This document shows, piece after piece, positions 1 to 11,282 of a DNA stretch of 12,824 nt. This DNA is from a virus (taxonomy: Duplodnaviria; Heunggongvirae; Uroviricota; Caudoviricetes): IMG/VR virus record IMGVR_UViG_2740892209_000012. One strand, written 5' to 3'. Position 1 is the stretch's first letter. Each line of letters starts with the position of its first letter. Both the position numbers and the translations under genes were made by a program. Below the pieces are notes generated by a model. The model had not been told where the DNA came from and did not search any database. It saw nothing but the letters and a program-made list of their open reading frames with translations.

Positions 1-170
1 GTTAAGCATCCACAGGCTGGTATCTGCAACCGATTATAACGGATGCTTAACGTAATGCGTGAAGTATGGACATATTTTATCAATTAGTGTTTTTTGCCGT
101 TTCATAATGTTTCAGATTGTTCATTATGTTTTTGATTATCAACGGATTTGCTATTTTCCTTGTTTCAGCT

Positions 171-227
171 TGTTTCACGTTGTAGCGCTTTGTGCAACGA
201 TCGGTGTAGTTAATGGTGTAGTTAATT
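171..227. repeat. attL: left copy of attachment-site direct repeat
   Basis: 192-227 matches 11247-11282 at 35 of 36 positions; similarity extends to 171-183 vs 11226-11238, with a divergent 8-bp patch between. Core contains tandem GGTGTAGTTAAT x2 (203-226). Confidence 0.75.
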
Positions 228-1478
228 GTGATGACCGGAATCAAAATTATGCGCAGAGCACTTAACAAACTGAGTGATACACAGCTAAGGAAAATCAACG
301 GCACACCCGCCCAAAAAACAGCCTTTCTTAATGACGGTGGAAACCTGAGCGTCAGGCATTCAACCAGCGGCCTTTTAACCTGGTATTTCACCTACAGGGC
401 CGGAACGGGAAGGGGAGCACGACCGGAACGGATTAAGCTGGGAAATTATCCTGATCTGAGTCTGAAAGCTGCCAGGGAAAAAGCGGCACAGTGTCGCGCT
501 TGGCTTGCTGAGGGGAAAAATCCACGTCATGAGATGAATTACACCGTACAGAAAGCGTTAAAGCCCGTAACGGTTGGCGATGCGCTTACCTACTGGCTTG
601 AGTCTTACGTAAAGGAAAACCGCGTGGATTATGCCGCCCTGAAAAAGCGCCTTAATAATCACGTAATACAGCACATTGGTGCTATGCCGCTGGATAAATG
701 CGAGCTACGGCACTGGCTGGCCTGTTTTGACCAGGTGGCAAAGCGAACGCCTGTTACTGCCGGATTCTTGCTACAGACGTGCAAACAGGCGCTTAAGTTC
801 TGCCGGAGGCGGCGCTATGCAATCAGCAACGTTCTTGATGATATGAGTGTGGCGGACGTTGGGAAAAAACCGGATATAAGCGAGCGTGTCTTAAGCACCA
901 AAGAACTTGGCGAATTATTGCAGGCACTGGACAAAAAAATATTTTCCCCTTACTACGTCGCACTAATCCGCCTCCTGATTGTTTTCGGATGCCGGACGGT
1001 AGAACTGAGGTTATCGGAGATCAGCGAGTGGGATTTTACCGAAATGCTCTGGACCGTGCCGAAAGAACACAGCAAAACGAAGGTGGCAATATTCCGGCCC
1101 ATACCGGAAGCAATACTGCCGTTCGTCACGCAGCTGGTGGAGCAGAACAGGCACACGGGCTTATTGCTGGGGGAAGTGAAACAGGAAACAAGCGTGTCGC
1201 AGTACGGCAGATTAGCGCACAGGAGGCTAAAACACCCTCACTGGTCACTGCATGACATCCGGCGCACCTTTACAACGATGCTGAACGATTTAGGCGTGGA
1301 TCCTCACGTCGTGGAGCAGCTTACAGGTCATCAGATGCCAGGGATGCAACGAGTCTATAACCATTCCCGTTATCTGGATGCGAAACGTGACGCGCTGGAT
1401 ATGTGGACGGAGCGGTTAGGGATACTGGCGGGAACACATGAAAACGTAACCACATTGCCAATAGCCAGAGAAATATAA
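228..1478 (+). CDS. int: Tyrosine recombinase / integrase, P4-family type
   Basis: 416-codon ORF. N-terminal arm-binding-like pattern (LNDGGNLSVR, WYFTYR, IKLGNYPDLSL..AR) and C-terminal catalytic signature (LHDIRRTF, GH......Y) typical of P4-like integrases. Begins right after the attL core. Start uncertain: GTG 228, ATG 231 or ATG 249. Confidence 0.9.
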   Translation: MMTGIKIMRRALNKLSDTQLRKINGTPAQKTAFLNDGGNLSVRHSTSGLLTWYFTYRAGTGRGARPERIKLGNYPDLSLKAAREKAAQCRAWLAEGKNPRHEMNYTVQKALKPVTVGDALTYWLESYVKENRVDYAALKKRLNNHVIQHIGAMPLDKCELRHWLACFDQVAKRTPVTAGFLLQTCKQALKFCRRRRYAISNVLDDMSVADVGKKPDISERVLSTKELGELLQALDKKIFSPYYVALIRLLIVFGCRTVELRLSEISEWDFTEMLWTVPKEHSKTKVAIFRPIPEAILPFVTQLVEQNRHTGLLLGEVKQETSVSQYGRLAHRRLKHPHWSLHDIRRTFTTMLNDLGVDPHVVEQLTGHQMPGMQRVYNHSRYLDAKRDALDMWTERLGILAGTHENVTTLPIAREI

Positions 1479-1500
1479 TTTTTTTTGCGATTTTTCAGGA

Positions 1501-1560
1501 TGCGGACAACGTGAAACAACGAGACACAACGACGAACAACAAGGAACAAAATGGAACAAC
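1501..1560. repeat. Six tandem 10-bp units each ending ACAAC/ACAAA, exactly helically phased
   Basis: tgcggACAAC gtgaaACAAC gagacACAAC gacgaACAAC aaggaACAAA atggaACAAC, directly after the int stop; a second CA-rich phased array (ACACAA units) at 1761-1810 flanks the AT-rich alpA upstream region. Confidence 0.6.
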
Positions 1561-1843
1561 GGGTTAAAAATCAGCCATCGTAATAACCATTTGATTTTTA
1601 TAGGTGTACTGTTTTTTTATACACTGGCGAATCACTCTTAAAAATATGTAAAAAAGGCGTAAAAGTAAAATTTTATGCCTTTGCATCATAATGAATTAAA
1701 AGAGTTTTTATTCTCATTCCCCCTGCTTCTGTAAAACGACCGCCGCCAGTGTTTGCCATTCCACAAACACCCTGACACAATCCGACACAACCCAACCCAA
1801 TAATCCACCCAATGACTCTTTAAGAAACAACAAAGGGGGAATT

Positions 1844-2032
1844 GTGTTAAGCACAGATCGCTTTATACGTGAAAAAGAATGTCAGCAACTTACAGGCCTG
1901 AGCCGCTCATGTCGGTACCGCCTGGAAAAAGCCGGACAATTCCCATCACGGCGTAAGCTGGGCGGTCGTTCCGTTGGCTGGTCTTTATCCGAAGTTTTGG
2001 CATGGAAGGACAGCTGCGAGGCAGTTCACTAA
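1844..2032 (+). CDS. alpA: AlpA/Vis-family HTH regulator (excision and transcription activator type)
   Basis: 62-aa ORF with GTG start preceded by AAGGGGGA Shine-Dalgarno; FIREKECQQLTGLSRSCRYRLEKAGQFPSRRKLGGRSVGWSLSEVLAW matches the AlpA-type small HTH pattern; position immediately downstream of int as in Gram-negative PICIs. Confidence 0.8.
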   Translation: MLSTDRFIREKECQQLTGLSRSCRYRLEKAGQFPSRRKLGGRSVGWSLSEVLAWKDSCEAVH

Positions 2033-2084
2033 TCAGGCTGGCGGCACACAGCCGCCACCCATCCACTAATACAGAGATCTAACC

Positions 2085-3371
2085 ATGAATACTGGATATT
2101 CTCCCGAACAAGGGCGGGGCTTCGTTCGTCCTGAAAAACAGAATCTGCAAAATTTTGCCGAAATTATTCCGGTTATTTCCGGCCTTACTGGCGGGAGTGA
2201 AACCAATATTGTTAACGCCAGAGCGTTGCAGATGTTTGATGATAAAAAGGGAGTAAATTTAACTTACACCCCTGACGGCAATCAGAATATGAGCATTATC
2301 TCTGAGTCAGGTTTCTACAAACTAATAAAAACAAAAAGCGCCCCGTTGCCGGAGCGCCTTTGTGAACAATTAACCTACTGCGCAAAAAATGAATCTGAGC
2401 AGTGGGATTATATCAACCATGTGGAGAAGCGCCACAATTGCCGAATAACGGGCAAAACAAAGGCCACCCGCTACAGTGGCCCCTCGACACAAGCTACACG
2501 TTATCCCCAACGCATGAGCATTGCCAACAATGCCACATTTGCGGCTGGTGGGCAATGCAATCAGTCTGGTTCAGTTCGTTGCCATACCTGCAATGAGCGC
2601 TTTTCCCTGTACTCTTTAAGGAATTGCTCAAGGGCAAAAGCACATGGCGCGAATCTTTCTGATTCATGCTCTATCTTTCTGCGCCGTCTTTTCCGTGCCG
2701 GTGATAATGTTTTGGTCAATTCTTTATCGGTCATTGTGTTGTCCTGCATAGCAATGCGCCGTAGTTACTCACACCACGGCGCTGGTGATGGTTACTCCTG
2801 CTCTTTGGCCTTGCGGCGCTGGCGGCGTTTGATTTCGCCGCGCATGGCTGCGTTTATAAACTGTCCCGTGCTTTCGCCTTCTTCTTTCACGTTCTCCATG
2901 CCTTCAATAATTTCATGGGCAATACGTGCAGTTACAGATTGTGATTTTGCATTCTTTGGACCCGTTGCCATGTTTAACCCCTCATGTTTTTGGTGTAAGA
3001 CAATATACACGAAAAAAAAATATTTTGAAGGGTTGGCGTGTAAGACACCATTGTTTTACATTGTGTCTTACACCTTATTGATGAAAGGCACAGAAACGAC
3101 GAAACCCCGCACTGTAGGAGCAGTAACGGGGCTTCTAACCACCAACGATAGCAACAGTATCGAGGTAGCTATGAGAAATCATACCACACACCCGAAAGGG
3201 CGGGACTCGCACAACCTGAATAAATACATCTGGCGTTTTATCGCCCTGAGCACGGCACAACCGCGCGTGATTACCATTGAGGCCACCAGCGAACAGGAAG
3301 CACGCCAGCAATCTCCGGCTGGCTGCGTGATGGTATTTGCTGCCCGTATTCGTCAGGGGGTAGGCTTATGA
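2085..3371 (+). CDS. Questionable 428-codon open frame; probably not one gene. Only the N-terminal ~85 codons look protein-like (BRO-N/antirepressor-like ISESGFYKLI motif)
   Basis: No stop for 1287 nt, but the central part is Cys/Ser/Arg/Leu-rich junk-like translation, runs antisense to a well-supported small minus-strand gene (2792-2971), and reads through an AT-rich operator/promoter region (2993-3080). The 3' end coincides with the Icd-like ORF starting at 3171. Confidence 0.2.
   Translation: MNTGYSPEQGRGFVRPEKQNLQNFAEIIPVISGLTGGSETNIVNARALQMFDDKKGVNLTYTPDGNQNMSIISESGFYKLIKTKSAPLPERLCEQLTYCAKNESEQWDYINHVEKRHNCRITGKTKATRYSGPSTQATRYPQRMSIANNATFAAGGQCNQSGSVRCHTCNERFSLYSLRNCSRAKAHGANLSDSCSIFLRRLFRAGDNVLVNSLSVIVLSCIAMRRSYSHHGAGDGYSCSLALRRWRRLISPRMAAFINCPVLSPSSFTFSMPSIISWAIRAVTDCDFAFFGPVAMFNPSCFWCKTIYTKKKYFEGLACKTPLFYIVSYTLLMKGTETTKPRTVGAVTGLLTTNDSNSIEVAMRNHTTHPKGRDSHNLNKYIWRFIALSTAQPRVITIEATSEQEARQQSPAGCVMVFAARIRQGVGL
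2324..2357 (-). terminator. Candidate intrinsic terminator for leftward transcription
   Basis: Stem GCGCCCCG (2338-2345) / CGGAGCGC (2350-2357), loop TTGC; on the minus strand it is followed by TTTTTGTTTTTATT (complement of 2324-2337). Confidence 0.35.
2792..2971 (-). CDS. Small basic hypothetical protein (59 aa), candidate autoregulated regulator
   Basis: Minus-strand ATG at 2971 preceded by GAGGGG Shine-Dalgarno (6-nt spacing); protein-like K/E-rich composition (MATGPKNAKSQSVTARIAHEIIEG...KRRQRRKAKEQE); promoter-like -35 TTCAAA / -10 TATATT upstream with a GTGTAAGACA operator-like repeat overlapping the -10/start region. Confidence 0.5.
   Translation of the reverse strand: MATGPKNAKSQSVTARIAHEIIEGMENVKEEGESTGQFINAAMRGEIKRRQRRKAKEQE
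2993..3073. promoter_or_regulatory. Divergent promoter/operator region with three GTGTAAGACA half-sites
   Basis: GTGTAAGACA at 2993-3002; perfect 11-bp inverted repeat GTGTAAGACAC (3038-3048) / GTGTCTTACAC (3063-3073) with a 14-bp spacer; lies between the minus-strand small gene and the plus-strand Icd-like ORF; -35-like TTTACA at 3055-3060 on the plus strand. Confidence 0.55.
3171..3371 (+). CDS. Icd-like small protein (host cell division inhibitor-like family seen in P1/P4-type immunity regions)
   Basis: ATG 3171 preceded by GAGG (5-nt spacing); 66 aa; the YIWRFIALSTAQPRVITIEATSEQEARQQSPAGCVMVFAARIR pattern resembles recalled Icd-like proteins; stop overlaps the next start (ATGA at 3368-3371). 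Confidence 0.45.
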   Translation: MRNHTTHPKGRDSHNLNKYIWRFIALSTAQPRVITIEATSEQEARQQSPAGCVMVFAARIRQGVGL

Positions 3372-3598
3372 GCCAGGAAATCACACTACAACAGGCAGCA
3401 GAACGCGCCCACCAAATCGAAGTTATTTGCGCACTGGCAGAGGATTACCCTAGCATGATGACCGACAGCGAATCAGGGGCAATCATCGGCTTACTTAAAC
3501 GCCTTAGCGGTGAGGTCTGCGTATTCCTGAGCGATGAACAGGAAAGAAGAACGCTTATTTCTAACGAAAAAAAATGCGGAGGGGTACATGTGCAATAA
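3368..3598 (+). CDS. Hypothetical protein (76 aa)
   Basis: ATG 3368 with GGGGG Shine-Dalgarno; ATGA overlap with the upstream ORF; overlaps the next ORF start by 11 nt. Confidence 0.55.
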   Translation: MSQEITLQQAAERAHQIEVICALAEDYPSMMTDSESGAIIGLLKRLSGEVCVFLSDEQERRTLISNEKKCGGVHVQ

Positions 3599-3818
3599 AA
3601 CCACACCGGACGCAGCAGAAGAAGCAATGCAAATACTGATACGTGCGCTCGTTGATGTTACCCACATGGTGGAGATTATGGAGAGAAAATCACAGTCGGA
3701 GCACGACAAAAGAAAACTTAAAACAATAAAAATAATTGCCAAAAACTCGCTGATAAAAGTTACAGACATCCTTAATGAGGACATTAAAAGAATAAGGGAG
3801 AAAATTTGTGATGCATAA
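3588..3818 (+). CDS. Hypothetical small protein (76 aa) in AT-rich segment
   Basis: ATG 3588 preceded by GCGGAGGGG Shine-Dalgarno; the ORF track extends it upstream to 3534 but the Shine-Dalgarno supports 3588; helical K/E/I-rich composition. Confidence 0.5.
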   Translation: MCNKTTPDAAEEAMQILIRALVDVTHMVEIMERKSQSEHDKRKLKTIKIIAKNSLIKVTDILNEDIKRIREKICDA

Positions 3819-4038
3819 AATCCCTTTTGAAGTATTAATCCACTCTGAAAACGCATTAATTAAAGCACGCGAAATGAATGCGTTGTTAATTAAATTAATT
3901 GAAGTGCCGGAAGGTGGCGAAGATCATTCATCATTAATGTTTGCCGCTGTTCAGACATTATTGACACCTGTTATTGATGAACTCAATAAGGCTATGGCAA
4001 TTCACGAGAATAATAAAGCGCCCCACACCGGAGAATAA
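3808..4038 (+). CDS. Hypothetical small protein (about 75 aa) in AT-rich segment
   Basis: GTG 3808 / ATG 3811 preceded by AGGGAG; overlaps the stop of the previous ORF (3816-3818); acidic helical composition. Confidence 0.5.
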   Translation: MMHKIPFEVLIHSENALIKAREMNALLIKLIEVPEGGEDHSSLMFAAVQTLLTPVIDELNKAMAIHENNKAPHTGE

Positions 4039-4043
4039 AAATA

Positions 4044-4343
4044 ATGAAACTTAAATATTCTGGCTTAACTGCCAGTGGCAAAACTCGCACTAAATTCATG
4101 CGCGGTGATATTTACCGCGACCAGTACGGCGGCACGGTAATGATTAAGGGCGTGGAGGAACGGCGCGTAACCTACCGTCGTGAAGGCTACGAATATGATT
4201 GCGTGATGCCTGTTTATCAGTTCGATCGTGATTTTTCTCTGGTGCAGGCCGTACCGCGTAACGTGCCCACCAGCAGGGAGAAAGCACGCGCCAATATTCA
4301 GGAAATAAAAAAGATGCTTAACGTATTCAGGGGTAAGAAATGA
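4044..4343 (+). CDS. Hypothetical basic protein (99 aa), translationally coupled to the primase gene
   Basis: ATG 4044 with GGAGA Shine-Dalgarno; stop TGA 4341-4343 overlaps the primase ATG 4340 (ATGA). Confidence 0.65.
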   Translation: MKLKYSGLTASGKTRTKFMRGDIYRDQYGGTVMIKGVEERRVTYRREGYEYDCVMPVYQFDRDFSLVQAVPRNVPTSREKARANIQEIKKMLNVFRGKK

Positions 4344-6088
4344 AACTGGCACCGAACGTAAAAAAACAACCACGCGGAATAAAACACAAAGACACAGAGG
4401 TAATTATTTTCGCGGGTAGTGATGCGTGGTCACATGCAAAACAGTGGCAGGAGCAGGACGGCCCCGCATCCGGCGATAATGTGCCGCCTGTGTGGCTTGG
4501 GCCAAATCAGCTTGCCGAACTTGATGCGCTGAAAATTGTTCCGGATGGGAAAAAGCGCGTAAGGCTGTACCAGGCCGGAGAACTGGATTTGGTGGAGACC
4601 AAAAAGATTGGTCAGAAGCTGGCGGCGGCAGATATTCAGGACGCAAATTTTTACCCCGAAGGAATGCACGTCCAGAAGTGTGAAAACTGGCGGCGCTATC
4701 TGAATGCTGAGCGTGAAAATATTGCCGCAGGGCTTACCATGCCGGAGCAGAAAAATACGCAACTGGCACAAATGGCAGACAGTGAGCGCGCGCAGCTGCT
4801 TGCCGAGCGCTTTGATGGCGTTTGTGTGCATCCTGAAAGTGAAATCGTTCACGTATGGCGCGGCGGGGTATGGTGTCCGGTCAGCACAATGGAGCTGAGC
4901 CGCGAAATGGTGGCGATCTATTCAGAGCACAGGGCCACTTTCAGCAAGCGCGTAATCAATAACGCCGTGGAAGCGTTAAAAGTTATTGCCGAACCAATGG
5001 GCGAGCCGTCCGGCTATTTGCTGCCGTTCGCCAATGGTGCGCTTGACCTGAAAACGGGGGAATTTTCCCCGCACACGCCGGAGAACTGGATCACCACGCA
5101 CAACGGCATTGAGTACACGCCACCAGCACCAGGGGAGAACATCCGCGATAACGCGCCAAACTTTCATAAATGGCTTAAGCACGCAGCCGGAAAAGACCCG
5201 CGCAAGATGATGCGTATATGTGCCGCGCTGTACATGATTATGGCGAACCGGTACGACTGGCAGATGTTTATTGAGGCCACCGGAGACGGCGGGAGCGGTA
5301 AAAGTACATTCACACACATAGCCAGCCTTCTGGCAGGGAAACAGAACACGGTAAGCGCTGAAATGACATCGCTTGATGATGCTGGTGGACGTGCGCAGGT
5401 TGTCGGGAGTCGTCTTATCGTCCTGGCTGACCAGCCGAAATATACAGGCGAAGGAACGGGCATCAAGAAAATCACGGGCGGTGACCCCGTGGAAATTAAC
5501 CCGAAATACGAAAAGCGTTTCACGGCTGTAATCAGGGCGGTGGTGCTGGCGACCAACAATAACCCGATGATATTCACCGAACGGGCCGGAGGTGTGGCAC
5601 GTCGTCGCGTGATTTTCCGTTTCGACAATATCGTCAGTGAGGCCGAAAAAGACAGGGAGCTACCGGAAAAGATCGCGGCTGAAATCCCTGTCATTATCCG
5701 CCGATTGCTGGCGAACTTTACCGACCCTGAGAAGGCACGGGCTTTACTACTGGAACAGCGTGACGGTGATGAAGCACTGGCAATAAAGCAACAGACGGAT
5801 CCGGTTATTGAGTTTTGCCAGTTCCTGAATTTTCTGGAGGAAGCGCGCGGCCTGATGATGGGGGGCGGTGGCGATTCAGTGAAGTACACGACCAGGAACA
5901 GCCTTTACCGCGTCTATCTGGCGTTTATGGCATACGCAGGCAGGAGCAAACCGCTAAACGTAAATGACTTTGGAAAGGCTATGAAGCCTGCCGCAAAAGT
6001 TTACGGACATGAATATATTACGCGGAAAGTTAAGGGGGTAACGCAGACTAACGCAATAACAACAGACGAGTGCGACGCGTTTTTATAA
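4340..6088 (+). CDS. Primase/replication initiator with D5_N-like and SF3-helicase P-loop domains (P4 alpha C-terminal type; PICI pri-rep-like)
   Basis: 582-aa ORF; FANGALDLKTGEF motif (D5_N-like), Walker A GDGGSGKST, Walker B-like RLIVLADQ; immediately followed by an iteron array. Confidence 0.9.
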   Translation: MKLAPNVKKQPRGIKHKDTEVIIFAGSDAWSHAKQWQEQDGPASGDNVPPVWLGPNQLAELDALKIVPDGKKRVRLYQAGELDLVETKKIGQKLAAADIQDANFYPEGMHVQKCENWRRYLNAERENIAAGLTMPEQKNTQLAQMADSERAQLLAERFDGVCVHPESEIVHVWRGGVWCPVSTMELSREMVAIYSEHRATFSKRVINNAVEALKVIAEPMGEPSGYLLPFANGALDLKTGEFSPHTPENWITTHNGIEYTPPAPGENIRDNAPNFHKWLKHAAGKDPRKMMRICAALYMIMANRYDWQMFIEATGDGGSGKSTFTHIASLLAGKQNTVSAEMTSLDDAGGRAQVVGSRLIVLADQPKYTGEGTGIKKITGGDPVEINPKYEKRFTAVIRAVVLATNNNPMIFTERAGGVARRRVIFRFDNIVSEAEKDRELPEKIAAEIPVIIRRLLANFTDPEKARALLLEQRDGDEALAIKQQTDPVIEFCQFLNFLEEARGLMMGGGGDSVKYTTRNSLYRVYLAFMAYAGRSKPLNVNDFGKAMKPAAKVYGHEYITRKVKGVTQTNAITTDECDAFL

Positions 6089-6102
6089 TTTTTTGTAATT
6101 GC

Positions 6103-6328
6103 TGTCTACCCTGTCTACCTGAGTAAAGAAAAATACATTTAATTCAGTGCATTAAGTTAGGTAGATAGCCTTTTTTTACTGTCTACCCACTATCTACCCT
6201 CTCTACCTGATTTTACCTGAATCAGACAGGGAGGTAGACACGGGGTAGATAGTGGATAAAAGCACTCTACCCCGCTGAAAGCCGCGCCATTACTGGCATG
6301 AGGGCCACTAAGGTAGATAAGGTAGACA
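6103..6328. repeat. Iteron-type replication origin
   Basis: About 11 copies of TGTCTACC / TATCTACC / CTCTACC and the inverse GGTAGACA / GGTAGATA in both orientations (e.g. 6103-6110, 6112-6119, 6160-6168, 6180-6188, 6191-6199, 6233-6240, 6244-6252, 6312-6319, 6321-6328) around an AT-rich spacer, directly downstream of the replication protein gene. Confidence 0.7.
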
Positions 6329-6376
6329 AGGGGAGGCACAACTCAAAACTTTTTAAACGAGGGGGTAAAAATAAAT

Positions 6377-6538
6377 ATGCACACTTCAGGGAAATTTAAT
6401 AAATCACTCAAAAAACGCAGAGACAGAACAGAACCGAAATATCGCGCGTTAGACATGACAGAGCACGCTTTAAAGGTGGCAATCAGAACGATAGACCGCC
6501 ACGCGGGGGAGGATACGCGAAAGCACATCCCGAACTGA
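6377..6538 (+). CDS. Possible small basic protein (53 aa), below the ORF-track size cutoff
   Basis: ATG 6377 preceded by GAGGGGG; a second 34-codon ORF (6550-6654) ends in an ATGA overlap with the ssb start. Both are speculative. Confidence 0.3.
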   Translation: MHTSGKFNKSLKKRRDRTEPKYRALDMTEHALKVAIRTIDRHAGEDTRKHIPN

Positions 6539-6650
6539 TAAGCGCATTCATGACCACGACGGCGGCAAATTTTGCCACGCTGACAGAGCGGGAGATTGCC
6601 GAAGCGGAACAGGTAACAACCATCAACGTTAAAACCGGAGAGGTGGAATC

Positions 6651-7073
6651 ATGACAGCACAGATAGCAGCTTACGGGCGGCTGGTGGACGACCCGCAGGT
6701 AAAACAGACCAGCAAGGGCACACCGATGACGCTGGCGCGTATGGCGGTCCCCCTTCCGTGCAGCCAGGCAGATGACGGAACGGCGACGATGTGGTTATCC
6801 GTCCTGGCATTTGGCAGACAGGCCGAAGCACTGGAAAGGCACCGCAAGGGTGAACTCCTGAGCGTGGCGGGTAACATGCAGATCAGCCAGTCGACTGGGC
6901 AGAACGGAGAAACGCGGCAGGGCTGGCAGGTTATCGCAGACAGTGTAATCAGTGCGCGAACGGCGCGACTGGGCGGCAAAAAAGGTCAACAGGGCCAGGC
7001 TACTGACGCGCTGAACAGGGCAAAACAACAGGCGGGGAATGATGATCCGTACGGGGATAACATACCGTTTTAA
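6651..7073 (+). CDS. Single-stranded DNA-binding protein-like (short SSB with acidic C-terminal tail)
   Basis: 140 aa; OB-fold-like N-terminus (GRLVDDPQVKQTSKG...) and C-terminal DDPYGDNIPF resembling the SSB acidic tail ending in IPF; followed by a strong terminator. Confidence 0.75.
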   Translation: MTAQIAAYGRLVDDPQVKQTSKGTPMTLARMAVPLPCSQADDGTATMWLSVLAFGRQAEALERHRKGELLSVAGNMQISQSTGQNGETRQGWQVIADSVISARTARLGGKKGQQGQATDALNRAKQQAGNDDPYGDNIPF

Positions 7074-7080
7074 GCGACGA

Positions 7081-7102
7081 GAGACAGAAGCCGGAGCAAT
7101 CC
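7081..7102 (+). terminator. Rho-independent terminator after ssb
   Basis: GCCGGA-GCAA-TCCGGC hairpin followed by TTTTTT. Confidence 0.7.
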
Positions 7103-7160
7103 GGCTTTTTTACGGGTCCTCCTGGCGGGGTGGGCCTGAACACGGGGCGGGAAGCGCGGA
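7103..7160 (+). other. Degenerate cos-like sequence (pseudo-cosQ/cosN), paralogous to the 9530-9606 region
   Basis: ACGGGTCCTCCTGG followed by GGGCGGGAAGCG (8 of 12 matches to cosN) and CGG-AAAAAAGCG; the preceding hairpin is near-identical to the one at 9530-9545. Confidence 0.35.
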
Positions 7161-7286
7161 AAAAAGCGCATTTTTGTGATTTTATCGTCATCATCATCAT
7201 GAGCGTAATTTATTGTTTTTAATTGTTTTGATGCAAAAAAGATGATGGTTGTGGTTAATTTTCGTTCGACATCTTTGCAGGCAGAT

Positions 7287-9529: not shown

Positions 9530-9552
9530 GCCGGAGAAATCCGGCTTTTTTT
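9530..9552 (+). terminator. Rho-independent terminator immediately upstream of cos
   Basis: GCCGGA-GAAA-TCCGGC hairpin followed by TTTTTTT. Confidence 0.7.
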
Positions 9553-9640
9553 ACGGGTCCTTTCCGGCATATGGACCCGTTACGGGGCGGCGACCTCGCG
9601 GTTTTTCGCTATTTATGAGCCTTTTCAGGGGGGTGGTGGT
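9553..9640 (+). other. Lambda-type cohesive end site (cosQ-cosN-proximal cosB), forward orientation
   Basis: ACGGGTCCTTTCCGG (cosQ-like, matches recalled lambda right end), GTTACG then GGGCGGCGACCT (9585-9596, identical to the lambda 12-nt cohesive end), then CGCGGTTTTTCGCTATTTATGA (near-identical to the lambda left end start); located about 135 bp upstream of the Nu1-like gene. Confidence 0.8.
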
Positions 9641-9729
9641 GGTTTTGTTGTTTGCTCTATCTTTATGAATGAAAAGGGAAAGATGCAAACAATACACCAA
9701 CCTGAAGCAGTAATTAAGTTGGTGTATTA

Positions 9730-10272
9730 ATGAAATCGCACCTGATGAACAAAAAAAACATGGCGAAAAGCTGCCGTGTAAGTGCGACAGCGTTCGACAA
9801 GTGGGGAGTGACTCCCGTTGAACGTAAAGGCCGTGAGGCGTTTTACGATGTTGCCAGCGTGATAGACAATAGGGTTAACAATGCAATTAGCCAGCTTACA
9901 AACGACAAAGGCGATATTGATGATGATGAACTCTTACGAGTCAGGATCAGATTACTGACAGCACAGGCGGAGGCGCAGGAACTTAAAAACGAGCGCGATC
10001 GCGGTGACGTGATTGATACTGAGTTTTGCCTGTACGCGCTTTCAAAGCTGGCGAGTCAGATTTCATCAATCATGGACAGCCTCCCGCTTACTATGCAAAG
10101 GAGCTTCCCACAGATTACCCCCGCCATGCTGGATAGGCTTAAAAGGGAAGTGGTTAAAGCCTGTAATGCCAGTGCCAGAGTTGCCGACAACCTCCCACAG
10201 ATACTGGCTGATTACTTGAAAGAAACAACCGGAAACGTACCGGAAAAGTTGCTACAGAAGAAAGGCGAGTAA
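9730..10272 (+). CDS. Terminase small subunit, lambda Nu1-like
   Basis: 180 aa; LTAQAEAQELKNERDRGDVIDTEFCLYALSKLASQISSIMDSLPLTMQRSFPQ aligns with recalled lambda Nu1 (LTRAQADAQELKNARDSAEVVETAFCTFVLSRIAGEIASILDGLPLSVQRRFPE); the N-terminal NKK... region matches the Nu1 N-terminus; start may be ATG 9730 or ATG 9745. Confidence 0.85.
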   Translation: MKSHLMNKKNMAKSCRVSATAFDKWGVTPVERKGREAFYDVASVIDNRVNNAISQLTNDKGDIDDDELLRVRIRLLTAQAEAQELKNERDRGDVIDTEFCLYALSKLASQISSIMDSLPLTMQRSFPQITPAMLDRLKREVVKACNASARVADNLPQILADYLKETTGNVPEKLLQKKGE

Positions 10273-10274
10273 CA

Positions 10275-10500
10275 GACGCGCAATTATTGAACAAAACTGA
10301 GAAACGACATGAAAGCGTCATAAATCGCCATTTTAGATGATTACCGTGTCGTTTCTTTTTATTGTGTATCTATTTAAAAACAAATAGTTATGTTCGAGAA
10401 GTACCGACATGCTTTTTCCAGAAAAATTTTCATAAACAGATAAAAACCGCGAGGTCGCCGCCCCGTAACGGGCCATAATTCCAGGAAGGACCCGACGACA
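10275..10500 (-). other. Second lambda-type cos site in inverted orientation with extended lambda-like cosB
   Basis: The reverse complement reads cosQ-like CGGGTCCTTCCTGG, then GTTACG-GGGCGGCGACCT-CGCGGTTTTT (cosN on plus strand at 10452-10463), then TTTATGAAAATTTTT, CATAACTATTTGTTTTTAAATAGATA, AAAAAGAAACGACACGG and GTCGTTTCTCAGTTTTG, mirroring recalled lambda cosB blocks (R3/R2/R1 region). It shares a 36-bp inverted repeat with cos1 (9571-9606 vs 10442-10477, 1 mismatch). Confidence 0.7.
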
Positions 10501-10977: not shown

Positions 10978-11225
10978 ACAATCCCCCATTGGGGGAGGCT
11001 GGGCGGCCTGCTGTGGGCTTTTCCACCATTGGTGGAAAGGCGCACATCTGGATCATCATTACGGTGATCAAGGGTATGTAAAACCCACCAGCCTGATTGA
11101 CATTTAACCGGAAAAAAGCCAGGTAGCCCCGTTATGGGGATCCCCATATCGACATTAACGCCCCTCATGAATTGGCGCGCTTCCCCCTGGAAAGATGACC
11201 CGCCTGTATATTTCTTGTGTCTATT

Positions 11226-11282
11226 TGTTCCACGTTGTTTCATACAGTGCAACGATCGGTGTAGTTAATGGTGTAGTCAATT
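11226..11282. repeat. attR: right copy of attachment-site direct repeat
   Basis: 11247-11282 matches 192-227 (35 of 36); the upstream block 11226-11238 matches 171-183. Confidence 0.75.

Follow-up and report, generated by a model that had tools for sequence, protein, structure and literature searches.

The prototype of the Gram-negative phage-inducible chromosomal islands (PICIs), which are satellites of phages, is EcCICFT073 of Escherichia coli CFT073 (Fillol-Salom et al. 2018, PMC6092414). In that strain, the island sits between roxA and phoQ. A second described locus, OI-51 (CP-933C) of E. coli O157:H7, encodes the 99-aa protein RgdR (ECs1581; isoelectric point [pI] 10) that binds DNA non-specifically, activates LEE1, represses motility, and raises Congo-red binding (Flockhart et al. 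2012, PMC3378721). The CFT073 orthologue C1493 acts like RgdR (PMC3378721; PMC10877973), and the tests of RgdR function cover the EDL933, CFT073, and ED1a variants only (PMC3378721). A third locus was described as a “prophage” locus of ECOR61, and an Icd-like gene and a gene for a DNA primase are among its six linked genes. It arrests growth when the accessory gene orf24 of a T7-group phage is expressed, and suppressor insertions were found in the Icd-like gene and in the two genes that come next, which are 186 and 192 nt long and have overlaps of 8 nt and 1 nt (Silas et al. 2023, bioRxiv 10.1101/2023.04.06.535777). Here, we analyze a 12,824-nt stretch of viral DNA (IMG/VR record IMGVR_UViG_2740892209_000012; hereafter “the window”) that, by gene content, att repeats, and alignment, represents an EcCICFT073-family PICI of ~11.1 kb at the roxA|phoQ site of E. 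coli, with phoQ as the right flank of the island. Our focus is the chain of small genes ahead of its primase gene and, within this chain, an AT-rich block formed by 2 genes that we call orfB and orfC.

The chain consists of six same-strand genes with starts at 3171, 3368, 3588, 3808/3811, 4044, and 4340, in the order Icd-like gene, orfA, orfB, orfC, rgdR/DUF4222, and primase-helicase gene (Table 1). An earlier interpretation of the bare letters, hereafter the sequence-only reading, had described the segment at ~3600 to 4040 as more AT-rich than its surroundings and as a two-gene insert. A windowed GC calculation bears out the composition, with the lowest values at 3617 to 4012 (~0.36 versus 0.49), and the lowest-GC interval of 451 nt among all 12,824 bases starts at 3617 with a value of 0.357 (mean 0.492, standard deviation 0.043, i.e., ~3 standard deviations below). 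Both orfB and orfC have a GC of 0.377, with 0.40 and 0.34, respectively, at third codon positions (GC3), and their neighbors in the chain have a GC of 0.48 to 0.55 and a GC3 of 0.48 to 0.58. The notion of an insert does not hold, however. On either side of the block, the window shares 96.5% (positions 1 to 3616) and 88.9% (4013 to 6979) DNA identity with EcCICFT073, and, within the left half of the island, 3617 to 4012 alone lacks DNA similarity to the prototype, which has 616 nt with a GC of 0.442 in its place, comprising the bodies of orfB (allele class c0), a gene termed F4 (73 aa), and orfC (c0, 77 aa). The left breakpoint is located 29 nt into orfB, after the common ...CCGGACGCAGC; the right one, from which the common TAAAGCGCCCCACACCGGAGAATAA runs on, is 26 nt ahead of the orfC stop. 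Because both breakpoints fall inside conserved gene ends (orfB 5', orfC 3'), the alignment identifies the block as an allelic cassette replacement by recombination and not as an insertion. Across related loci, the majority-base frequency is 0.87 to 0.90 in the first 30 nt of orfB compared to 0.53 to 0.75 around them, and it steps from 0.69 to 0.95 at 12 nt before the orfC stop.

The low GC of the block might also be taken as a mark of foreign origin. Yet EcCICFT073 has its own trough just upstream of rgdR (F4 0.43, orfC 0.40), and the same is seen in EDL933 OI-51, where three cassettes with other alleles have GC values of 0.42, 0.43, and 0.39. Escherichia orfC alleles are AT-rich throughout (mean GC 0.392, range 0.364 to 0.419, GC3 0.354). 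The AT-richness of orfB, in contrast, is specific to the allele class of the window (c1), since GC values within the orfB family span 0.372 to 0.519, and the orfC-like genes of a Klebsiella satellite and of a metagenomic element have a GC of ~0.50 and, thus, no AT-richness. Because EcCICFT073 and OI-51 share the trough with other alleles, it is a family trait that neither dates nor marks a recent foreign acquisition here, which matters for composition-based scans for defence islands. The H-NS motif TCGATAAATT shows no enrichment, with 15 matches versus 14.1 expected and one of them in the block.

Variation across related satellites was followed in two sets of loci. Sample 1 comprises 80 IMG/VR loci with a DUF4222 homologue plus RefSeq strain 300033 and the window, and 70 of its loci hold the complete interval from the Icd-like gene to DUF4222; sample 2 comprises 63 primase-anchored loci. 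As the sequence-only reading had anticipated, the position is variable across related islands, with 25 gene architectures in the 70 complete intervals. The orfC family lies directly upstream of DUF4222 in 70/70 loci of sample 1 and 58/63 loci of sample 2, and DUF4222 abuts the primase gene in all 63 of the latter. A short Icd-like gene is present in 66/70 loci. The orfB family was found in 40/70 loci plus 14 in which it is fused to F4 (32/63 in sample 2), F4 in 27/70, and orfA in 17/70 (23/63). By these comparisons, orfC is a near-core gene that is positionally locked to rgdR rather than cargo as previously supposed, and orfA and orfB are optional cassettes.

Nor do the 2 genes of the block behave as one unit. 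In all 11 loci with orfB.c1, the next gene is orfC.c1, and orfB.c1 was only seen together with it. Conversely, orfB.c1 is missing from 11 of the 22 loci with orfC.c1, and in 10 of the 22, orfC.c1 stands directly after the Icd-like gene. For orfC.c0, an F4 domain comes before it in 41 of 43 loci. The pair of orfC and DUF4222 precedes at least four replicases, i.e., D5-type enzymes (89% to 99% identity), a 47% variant, RepA/AAA_25 helicases, and a DUF927 primase. The order orfB.c1-orfC.c1-DUF4222 also occurs in another type of satellite with RepA helicase, ProQ/FinO, PerC, and TerS at tRNA-Pro, and a 31%-identical orfC relative in a further element likewise adjoins DUF4222 next to a RepA-type helicase. 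Some part of the region corresponding to window positions 3000 to 4400 is present in 1,750 of 5,426 complete E. coli genomes, and the two-gene block is at least 80% complete in only 43. About one third of complete E. coli genomes therefore have part of a region in which RgdR is the product of the only small gene with an assigned role.

Where the common orfB allele meets F4, the orfB product ends in a glycine run (...ENGGG; e.g., L019:3326-3760, L025:2944-3409, and L033:3091-3545) that, judging from the protein, is probably encoded by a poly-G tract. orfB and F4 are either separate, with orfB ending in ...GGGYA or ...GGLCVMIVLIP before its stop, or form one fused open reading frame (ORF) of 144 to 155 aa (14/70 loci). 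This junction could be slippage-prone or phase-variable.

Consistent with the description of a chain of coupled ORFs running into the primase gene, all junctions either overlap by 4 to 11 nt or leave a 5-nt gap. The stop codon TGA of the Icd-like gene (3369 to 3371) and the orfA ATG at 3368 form an ATGA overlap, the end of orfA (3598) overlaps the orfB ATG (3588) by 11 nt with a ribosome-binding site GGAGGGG upstream, the end of orfB (3818) overlaps the orfC start by 8 or 11 nt depending on the start codon (3811 or 3808), and the DUF4222 TGA forms another ATGA overlap with the primase ATG at 4340. The statement that successive ORFs overlap is thus correct at 3368, 3588, 3808/3811, and 4340 but not at 4044, where 5 nt (4039 to 4043) separate DUF4222 from the end of orfC at 4038. 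RefSeq annotates an identical orfC gene from ATG 3811. Shine-Dalgarno-like sequences are found upstream of every start of the chain, and promoter- or terminator-like sites inside the chain do not exceed shuffled expectation.

Substitution patterns mark both orfB and orfC as real, selected genes. Compared to the related locus L084 (82% DNA identity), the ratio of nonsynonymous to synonymous substitution rates (dN/dS) is 0.35 for orfB and 0.19 for orfC, and it is higher in the other two frames (0.56 to 0.63 and 1.1 to 2.4, respectively); within allele classes, it is 0.20 to 0.31 for orfC and 0.26 for DUF4222. As the sequence-only reading had proposed for two helical proteins of ~76 aa, AlphaFold2 models each product as two antiparallel helices (orfB, H9-34 and H38-75, predicted local distance difference test [pLDDT] score 86; orfC, H6-31 and H39-69, pLDDT 84.6), i.e., as predicted soluble two-helix hairpins without an enzymatic fold. 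A hydrophobic antisense ORF of 121 codons across orfB (3491-3856, minus strand) was considered as a gene and rejected; because it meets a stop at codon 7 in L084, it is probably a shadow ORF cast by the K/E/I-rich gene on the sense strand.

Contrary to the idea of unrecognised families, orfA, orfB, and orfC each match a PHROG family (phrog_1478, phrog_5146, and phrog_2196), although it is true that all three families are of unknown function. No match for any of these three genes was obtained in scans of Pfam, NCBIfam, and PADLOC-DB 2.0, no defence component model of PADLOC-DB 2.0 was matched by any of eight small proteins, and a Pfam scan of the sister cassettes F4, F8, F9, F10, and F11 gave no match, so that the suggested toxin-antitoxin or defence function finds no counterpart among such models. 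Foldseek returned generic helical hairpins only (E at least 0.15) for the orfB model against PDB and for the orfC model against BFVD and PDB, and a sequence-profile search of PDB with orfB and orfC gave nothing better than E 0.1. A common origin of the cassettes orfA, orfB, F4, orfC, F9, and F10 was likewise rejected: because the hhalign probability is <2% in every pair, they are no detectable paralogues despite their equal size and fold.

Both families are largely restricted to satellites. The window type of orfB forms 24 clusters at 90% identity and the whole orfB family 523 clusters, with Escherichia or Shigella as the source of all named ones among the 120 matches listed; orfC forms 120 clusters at 90% identity from Escherichia/Shigella, and its profile found 14 proteins among 1.84 billion representatives. 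Among 50,697 phage records, orfB has no match and orfC only one, in a 16.5-kb satellite-like record of Klebsiella where the relative (~36% identity) is encoded directly upstream of the primase. The sampled contexts of both families are satellite-type islands.

Our favored reading of the locus, to which we give a slightly better than even chance as a whole, is that of an early PICI operon with shuffled cassettes in which orfB and orfC encode stoichiometric binding proteins. Its descriptive part is very probably correct, whereas the binding-modulator mechanism, argued by analogy, is tentative. The chain from 3171 to 6088 would be a rightward early operon read from a divergent control region at ~2990 to 3170, and its promoter-proximal part would consist of independent cassettes of ~75 codons that are translationally coupled through conserved junctions, at which recombination would shuffle cassette alleles between satellites. 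After induction, the Icd-like protein would arrest cell division and thereby open a program of host or helper takeover. The hairpins of orfB and orfC may bind other proteins stoichiometrically, like Kil, CIII, Gam, and Ral of lambdoid phages; orfC would then most likely be a modulator or co-factor of the basic, DNA-binding RgdR/DUF4222, and orfB.c1 might act together with orfC.c1 or on a variable target in host or helper.

Several points weigh against this reading. The case for a binding-protein mechanism of orfB and orfC is made up of size, fold, and analogy, and gene spacing is the basis for assuming a single operon transcript. The allele classes of orfC and DUF4222 are freely recombined, which does not point to allele-specific co-evolution of a tight complex, and an orfC-family gene is missing from 5/63 primase-anchored loci. 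Finally, both locus samples were drawn from the same collection, overlap, and were picked by similarity to genes of the window.

The alternative that survives best, though unlikely in our view, is that orfB, orfC, or neighboring cassettes are anti-helper interference or anti-defence proteins and that their allelic diversity reflects an arms race with helper phages or host immunity, which is the proposal of the sequence-only reading minus the insert. Several deeply diverged alleles indeed occupy a single position (31% to 41% identity between orfC classes, ~30% between orfB classes), the genes are early, small, and acidic or helical, and both families are almost confined to satellites; in addition, EcCICFT073 interferes with phage lambda through genes that were unidentified as of 2018 (PMC6092414). 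However, dN/dS values of 0.19 to 0.35 indicate purifying and not diversifying selection within allele classes, orfC stays beside DUF4222 whichever packaging module an island has, and PADLOC, Pfam, and NCBIfam provide no match. Moreover, the Rpp-type packaging interference of this island family reportedly maps elsewhere (PMC6739421). The small-gene names and terms that we searched for in the EcCICFT073 papers PMC6739421 and PMC10460865 gave no match.

We consider it quite unlikely that the small proteins are replication accessory factors that load, regulate, or target the replicase, comparable to Cnr for the alpha primase of P4. This role is weakened because the pair of orfC and DUF4222 occurs with unrelated replicases of at least four kinds, and RgdR alone causes host-wide regulatory effects (PMC3378721). 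What speaks for it is the arrangement of the genes, which lie directly upstream of the replicase gene and are translationally coupled, with DUF4222 abutting the primase in all sampled loci of the primase-anchored set and with an orfC-like gene doing so in the Klebsiella satellite.

A more far-reaching variant, which we regard as very unlikely, would make orfC-RgdR a conserved satellite module that rewires nucleoid-dependent transcription of the host on induction, with the orfC hairpin as a modulator of RgdR and with the cassettes orfB, F4, orfA, and F10 as sensors or adaptors that choose the phage trigger of Icd-dependent arrest. The effects of RgdR (LEE1 up, motility down, Congo-red binding up) resemble those of an hns mutant or a loss of H-NS silencing. 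If this variant were true, the module and its interchangeable cassettes would form a combinatorial phage-sensing array in PICIs.

That the basic orfB and the acidic orfC constitute a toxin-antitoxin or abortive-infection pair is highly improbable. They have the appearance of one as two overlapping genes of ~75 codons with opposite net charge, but plain helical hairpins are predicted for both, no toxin or antitoxin family is matched in Pfam, NCBIfam, PADLOC, or the structure and PDB-sequence searches, and they have no promoter-like site of their own above chance. That orfB.c1 never occurs without orfC.c1 while orfC.c1 does occur alone would suit such a pair, yet the half of orfC.c1 loci without orfB.c1 shows that the pairing is not obligate, and other orfB alleles pair with the unrelated F4. 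In ECOR61, growth arrest triggered by phage is mediated by an apparent sister operon, whose match is one of gene lengths and overlaps only, but the effector in this published case is the Icd-like protein and not orfB or orfC. Chance frames in a non-coding spacer, an idea to which the shortness of the ORFs, their lack of a named family, and the likewise open antisense ORF could lend some color, are excluded because of selection and conservation: dN/dS is lowest in the annotated frames, length and frame are kept across alleles at synonymous divergence (dS) of up to 1.2, ribosome-binding sites and coupling are present, the structure models are confident, and the antisense ORF is interrupted in L084.

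The families of the remaining chain genes are clear, with 69.9 bits for the Icd-like gene against NF033153 (curated cut-off 25) and 84 bits for the DUF4222 protein against PF13973 (gathering cut-off 27), and the latter carries an RGD motif at residues 20-22. Relatives of orfA with 38% to 41% identity are encoded in the early-left operons of Fels-1 and of Klebsiella lambdoid prophages, and in CFT073, a lambdoid prophage likewise carries a DUF4222 homologue close to xis. On the plus strand, an ORF of 428 codons (2085-3371) stays open through both minus-strand genes and the control region, and its 3' end is the Icd-like gene. Its first ~170 codons have weak matches to anti-repressor (Ant-type) PHROGs at residues 51-84, its middle looks like a shadow frame, and the equivalent stretch of strain 300033 is labeled by PGAP as a truncated Icd-like pseudogene; the ORF may be what is left of a long Icd-like gene after the regulatory module split it. 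At the other end of the chain, only primase residues 1-141 (4340-4760) are common, at ~57% identity, to the otherwise different replicases of sister islands (L040-L066 and others). Replicases at this position in sister islands are labeled by RefSeq as RepA-family helicases. Sequence comparison suggests that the N-terminal primase domain next to DUF4222 is swappable between islands.

The island around the chain has the layout of a PICI (Table 1). Integrase and then AlpA are encoded at its left end, and the primase-helicase module is transcribed away from the regulatory region. The island falls into the size range of ~10 to 15 kb, is flanked by att repeats, lacks lysis and tail genes, and encodes capsid-E-like (Phage_cap_E) and decoration-D-like (HDPD; lambda-D-like) proteins as c1499/c1500 do. 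Two minus-strand genes lie between AlpA and the chain, and one of them, the YlcI/YnfO-family gene, is by its position a candidate repressor of the early operon. The GTGTAAGACA repeats between this gene and the Icd-like gene are likely the operator of the divergent control region. A C4- or CI-like RNA was also sought with Rfam in front of the Icd-like gene, but the single match was due to chance and lay elsewhere.

Downstream of the chain, a long imperfect hairpin with repeated CTACC-type motifs at 6175-6256, just 3' of the primase gene, is a candidate replication origin or terminator; it had surfaced as a chance Rfam match to mir-135. Near-identical terminator-like hairpins GCCGGAG(C/A)AATCCGGCTTTTTT are found at 7090-7111 after the SSB gene and at 9530-9551 after a gene encoding a 137-aa protein. 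Besides the AT-rich block, 6980-7286 and 9627-10416 cannot be aligned with EcCICFT073; the former lacks the PerC-family gene that CFT073 has, and the latter holds the Nu1-like small terminase gene. Because these blocks fail to align, the packaging end of the island is also mosaic.

Table 1. Coordinates of features in the window.
Feature	Position	Strand	Evidence and remarks
att direct repeat, 76 nt, 80% identity	152..227 (attL side) and 11207-11282	.	Repeat search; site and flanks as in EcCICFT073
Tyrosine integrase	228-1478		Pfam Phage_integrase and Arm-DNA-bind_3
AlpA-family regulator	1844-2032		Pfam Phage_AlpA
YlcI/YnfO-family gene, 72 aa	2792..3010	-	Divergent from chain; NF041551, E 8.8e-18
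Operator-like repeats GTGTAAGACA, 3 copies	2993-3002 and 3038-3047 (direct), 3064-3073 (inverted)	.	Divergent control region
Icd-like gene, 66 aa, pI 10.8	3171..3371	+	First of chain; NF033153, E 1.4e-19; phrog_6196
orfA, 76 aa, acidic (pI 4.8)	3368..3598	+	Optional cassette; phrog_1478, E 3.2e-28
orfB, 76 aa, mildly basic (pI 8.6)	3588..3818	+	Class c1 (AT-rich allele); phrog_5146, E 4.5e-8
AT-rich replaced block, 396 nt, GC 0.359	3617..4012	.	Bodies of orfB and orfC; no DNA similarity to EcCICFT073
orfC, 75 aa from ATG 3811 (alternative GTG 3808), acidic (pI 5.4)	3811..4038	+	phrog_2196, E 3.7e-10
DUF4222/RgdR-family gene, 99 aa, pI 10.05	4044..4343	+	PF13973, E 5e-24
D5-type primase-helicase, 582 aa	4340..6088	+	Last gene of chain; D5_N, DUF5906, and Pox_D5 domains
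Single-stranded DNA-binding protein (SSB)	6651-7073		Replication module
Nu1-like small terminase gene	9730-10272		No counterpart in EcCICFT073

Small-gene chains of this kind are also known from elsewhere. The early-left (PL) operons of lambdoid phages and the left operon of P4 are runs of small, coupled, and mostly dispensable genes near replication or recombination genes, and their products include a division inhibitor (Kil or Icd), the helical inhibitors CIII, Gam, and Ral, and, in P4, epsilon and Cnr. The chain of the window shares homologues of orfA and DUF4222 with lambdoid early-left operons. In contrast, no similarity of orfB and orfC to these lambdoid and P4 small proteins was detected at the sequence or profile level, and, unlike the gene pool of orfA and DUF4222, the two are essentially absent from true phage genomes.

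Closest to the window is EcCICFT073, which has the same succession of int, alpA, a divergent YlcI-like gene, an Icd-like gene, orfA, small cassettes, DUF4222 (c1493), primase, SSB, and capsid-E-like and decoration-D-like genes. The orfA of CFT073 is WP_000076671.1, which is also the orfA of strain 300033 (99% identical), so that its likeness to orfA of the window is drawn via this accession. The two islands differ in the cassettes themselves, with orfB.c0, F4, and orfC.c0 (616 nt, GC 0.44) in EcCICFT073 versus orfB.c1 and orfC.c1 (396 nt, GC 0.36) in the window. OI-51 resembles the window in its roxA|phoQ site and operon logic, and the DUF4222 protein of the window is like RgdR in length, in charge and pI, and in the RGD at residues 20-22. 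Its chain runs from an Icd-like gene through a 61-aa gene, a 63-aa orfA allele, and an 80-aa gene at the orfC position to RgdR (99 aa) and a DUF927 primase, and it differs from the window in this replicase and in another capsid module; the 80-aa gene belongs to a remote class with an hhalign probability of 43% against the window-type profile.

The ECOR61 locus differs from the window in its long Icd-like protein and in cassettes of the F10/orfA63 type instead of orfB.c1 and orfC.c1. The lengths and overlaps of its suppressor genes (contig QOYT01000045.1, 8940-9675) equal those of the 61-aa gene and the 63-aa orfA allele in EDL933 OI-51 (L088, 3712-4815), and by this match of gene lengths and overlaps only, it is likely a sister operon. 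Because of the same agreement with OI-51, the published “prophage superinfection-exclusion system” may be the early operon of a PICI of the EcCICFT073 family. New leads from our analysis are the exchange of cassettes at fixed junctions, the locking of orfC to rgdR across four replicase types, and this likely sister operon of growth arrest. Measured against these known systems, the finding is real but largely ordinary: The island is a variant of a known satellite family with a swapped pair of uncharacterised small genes.

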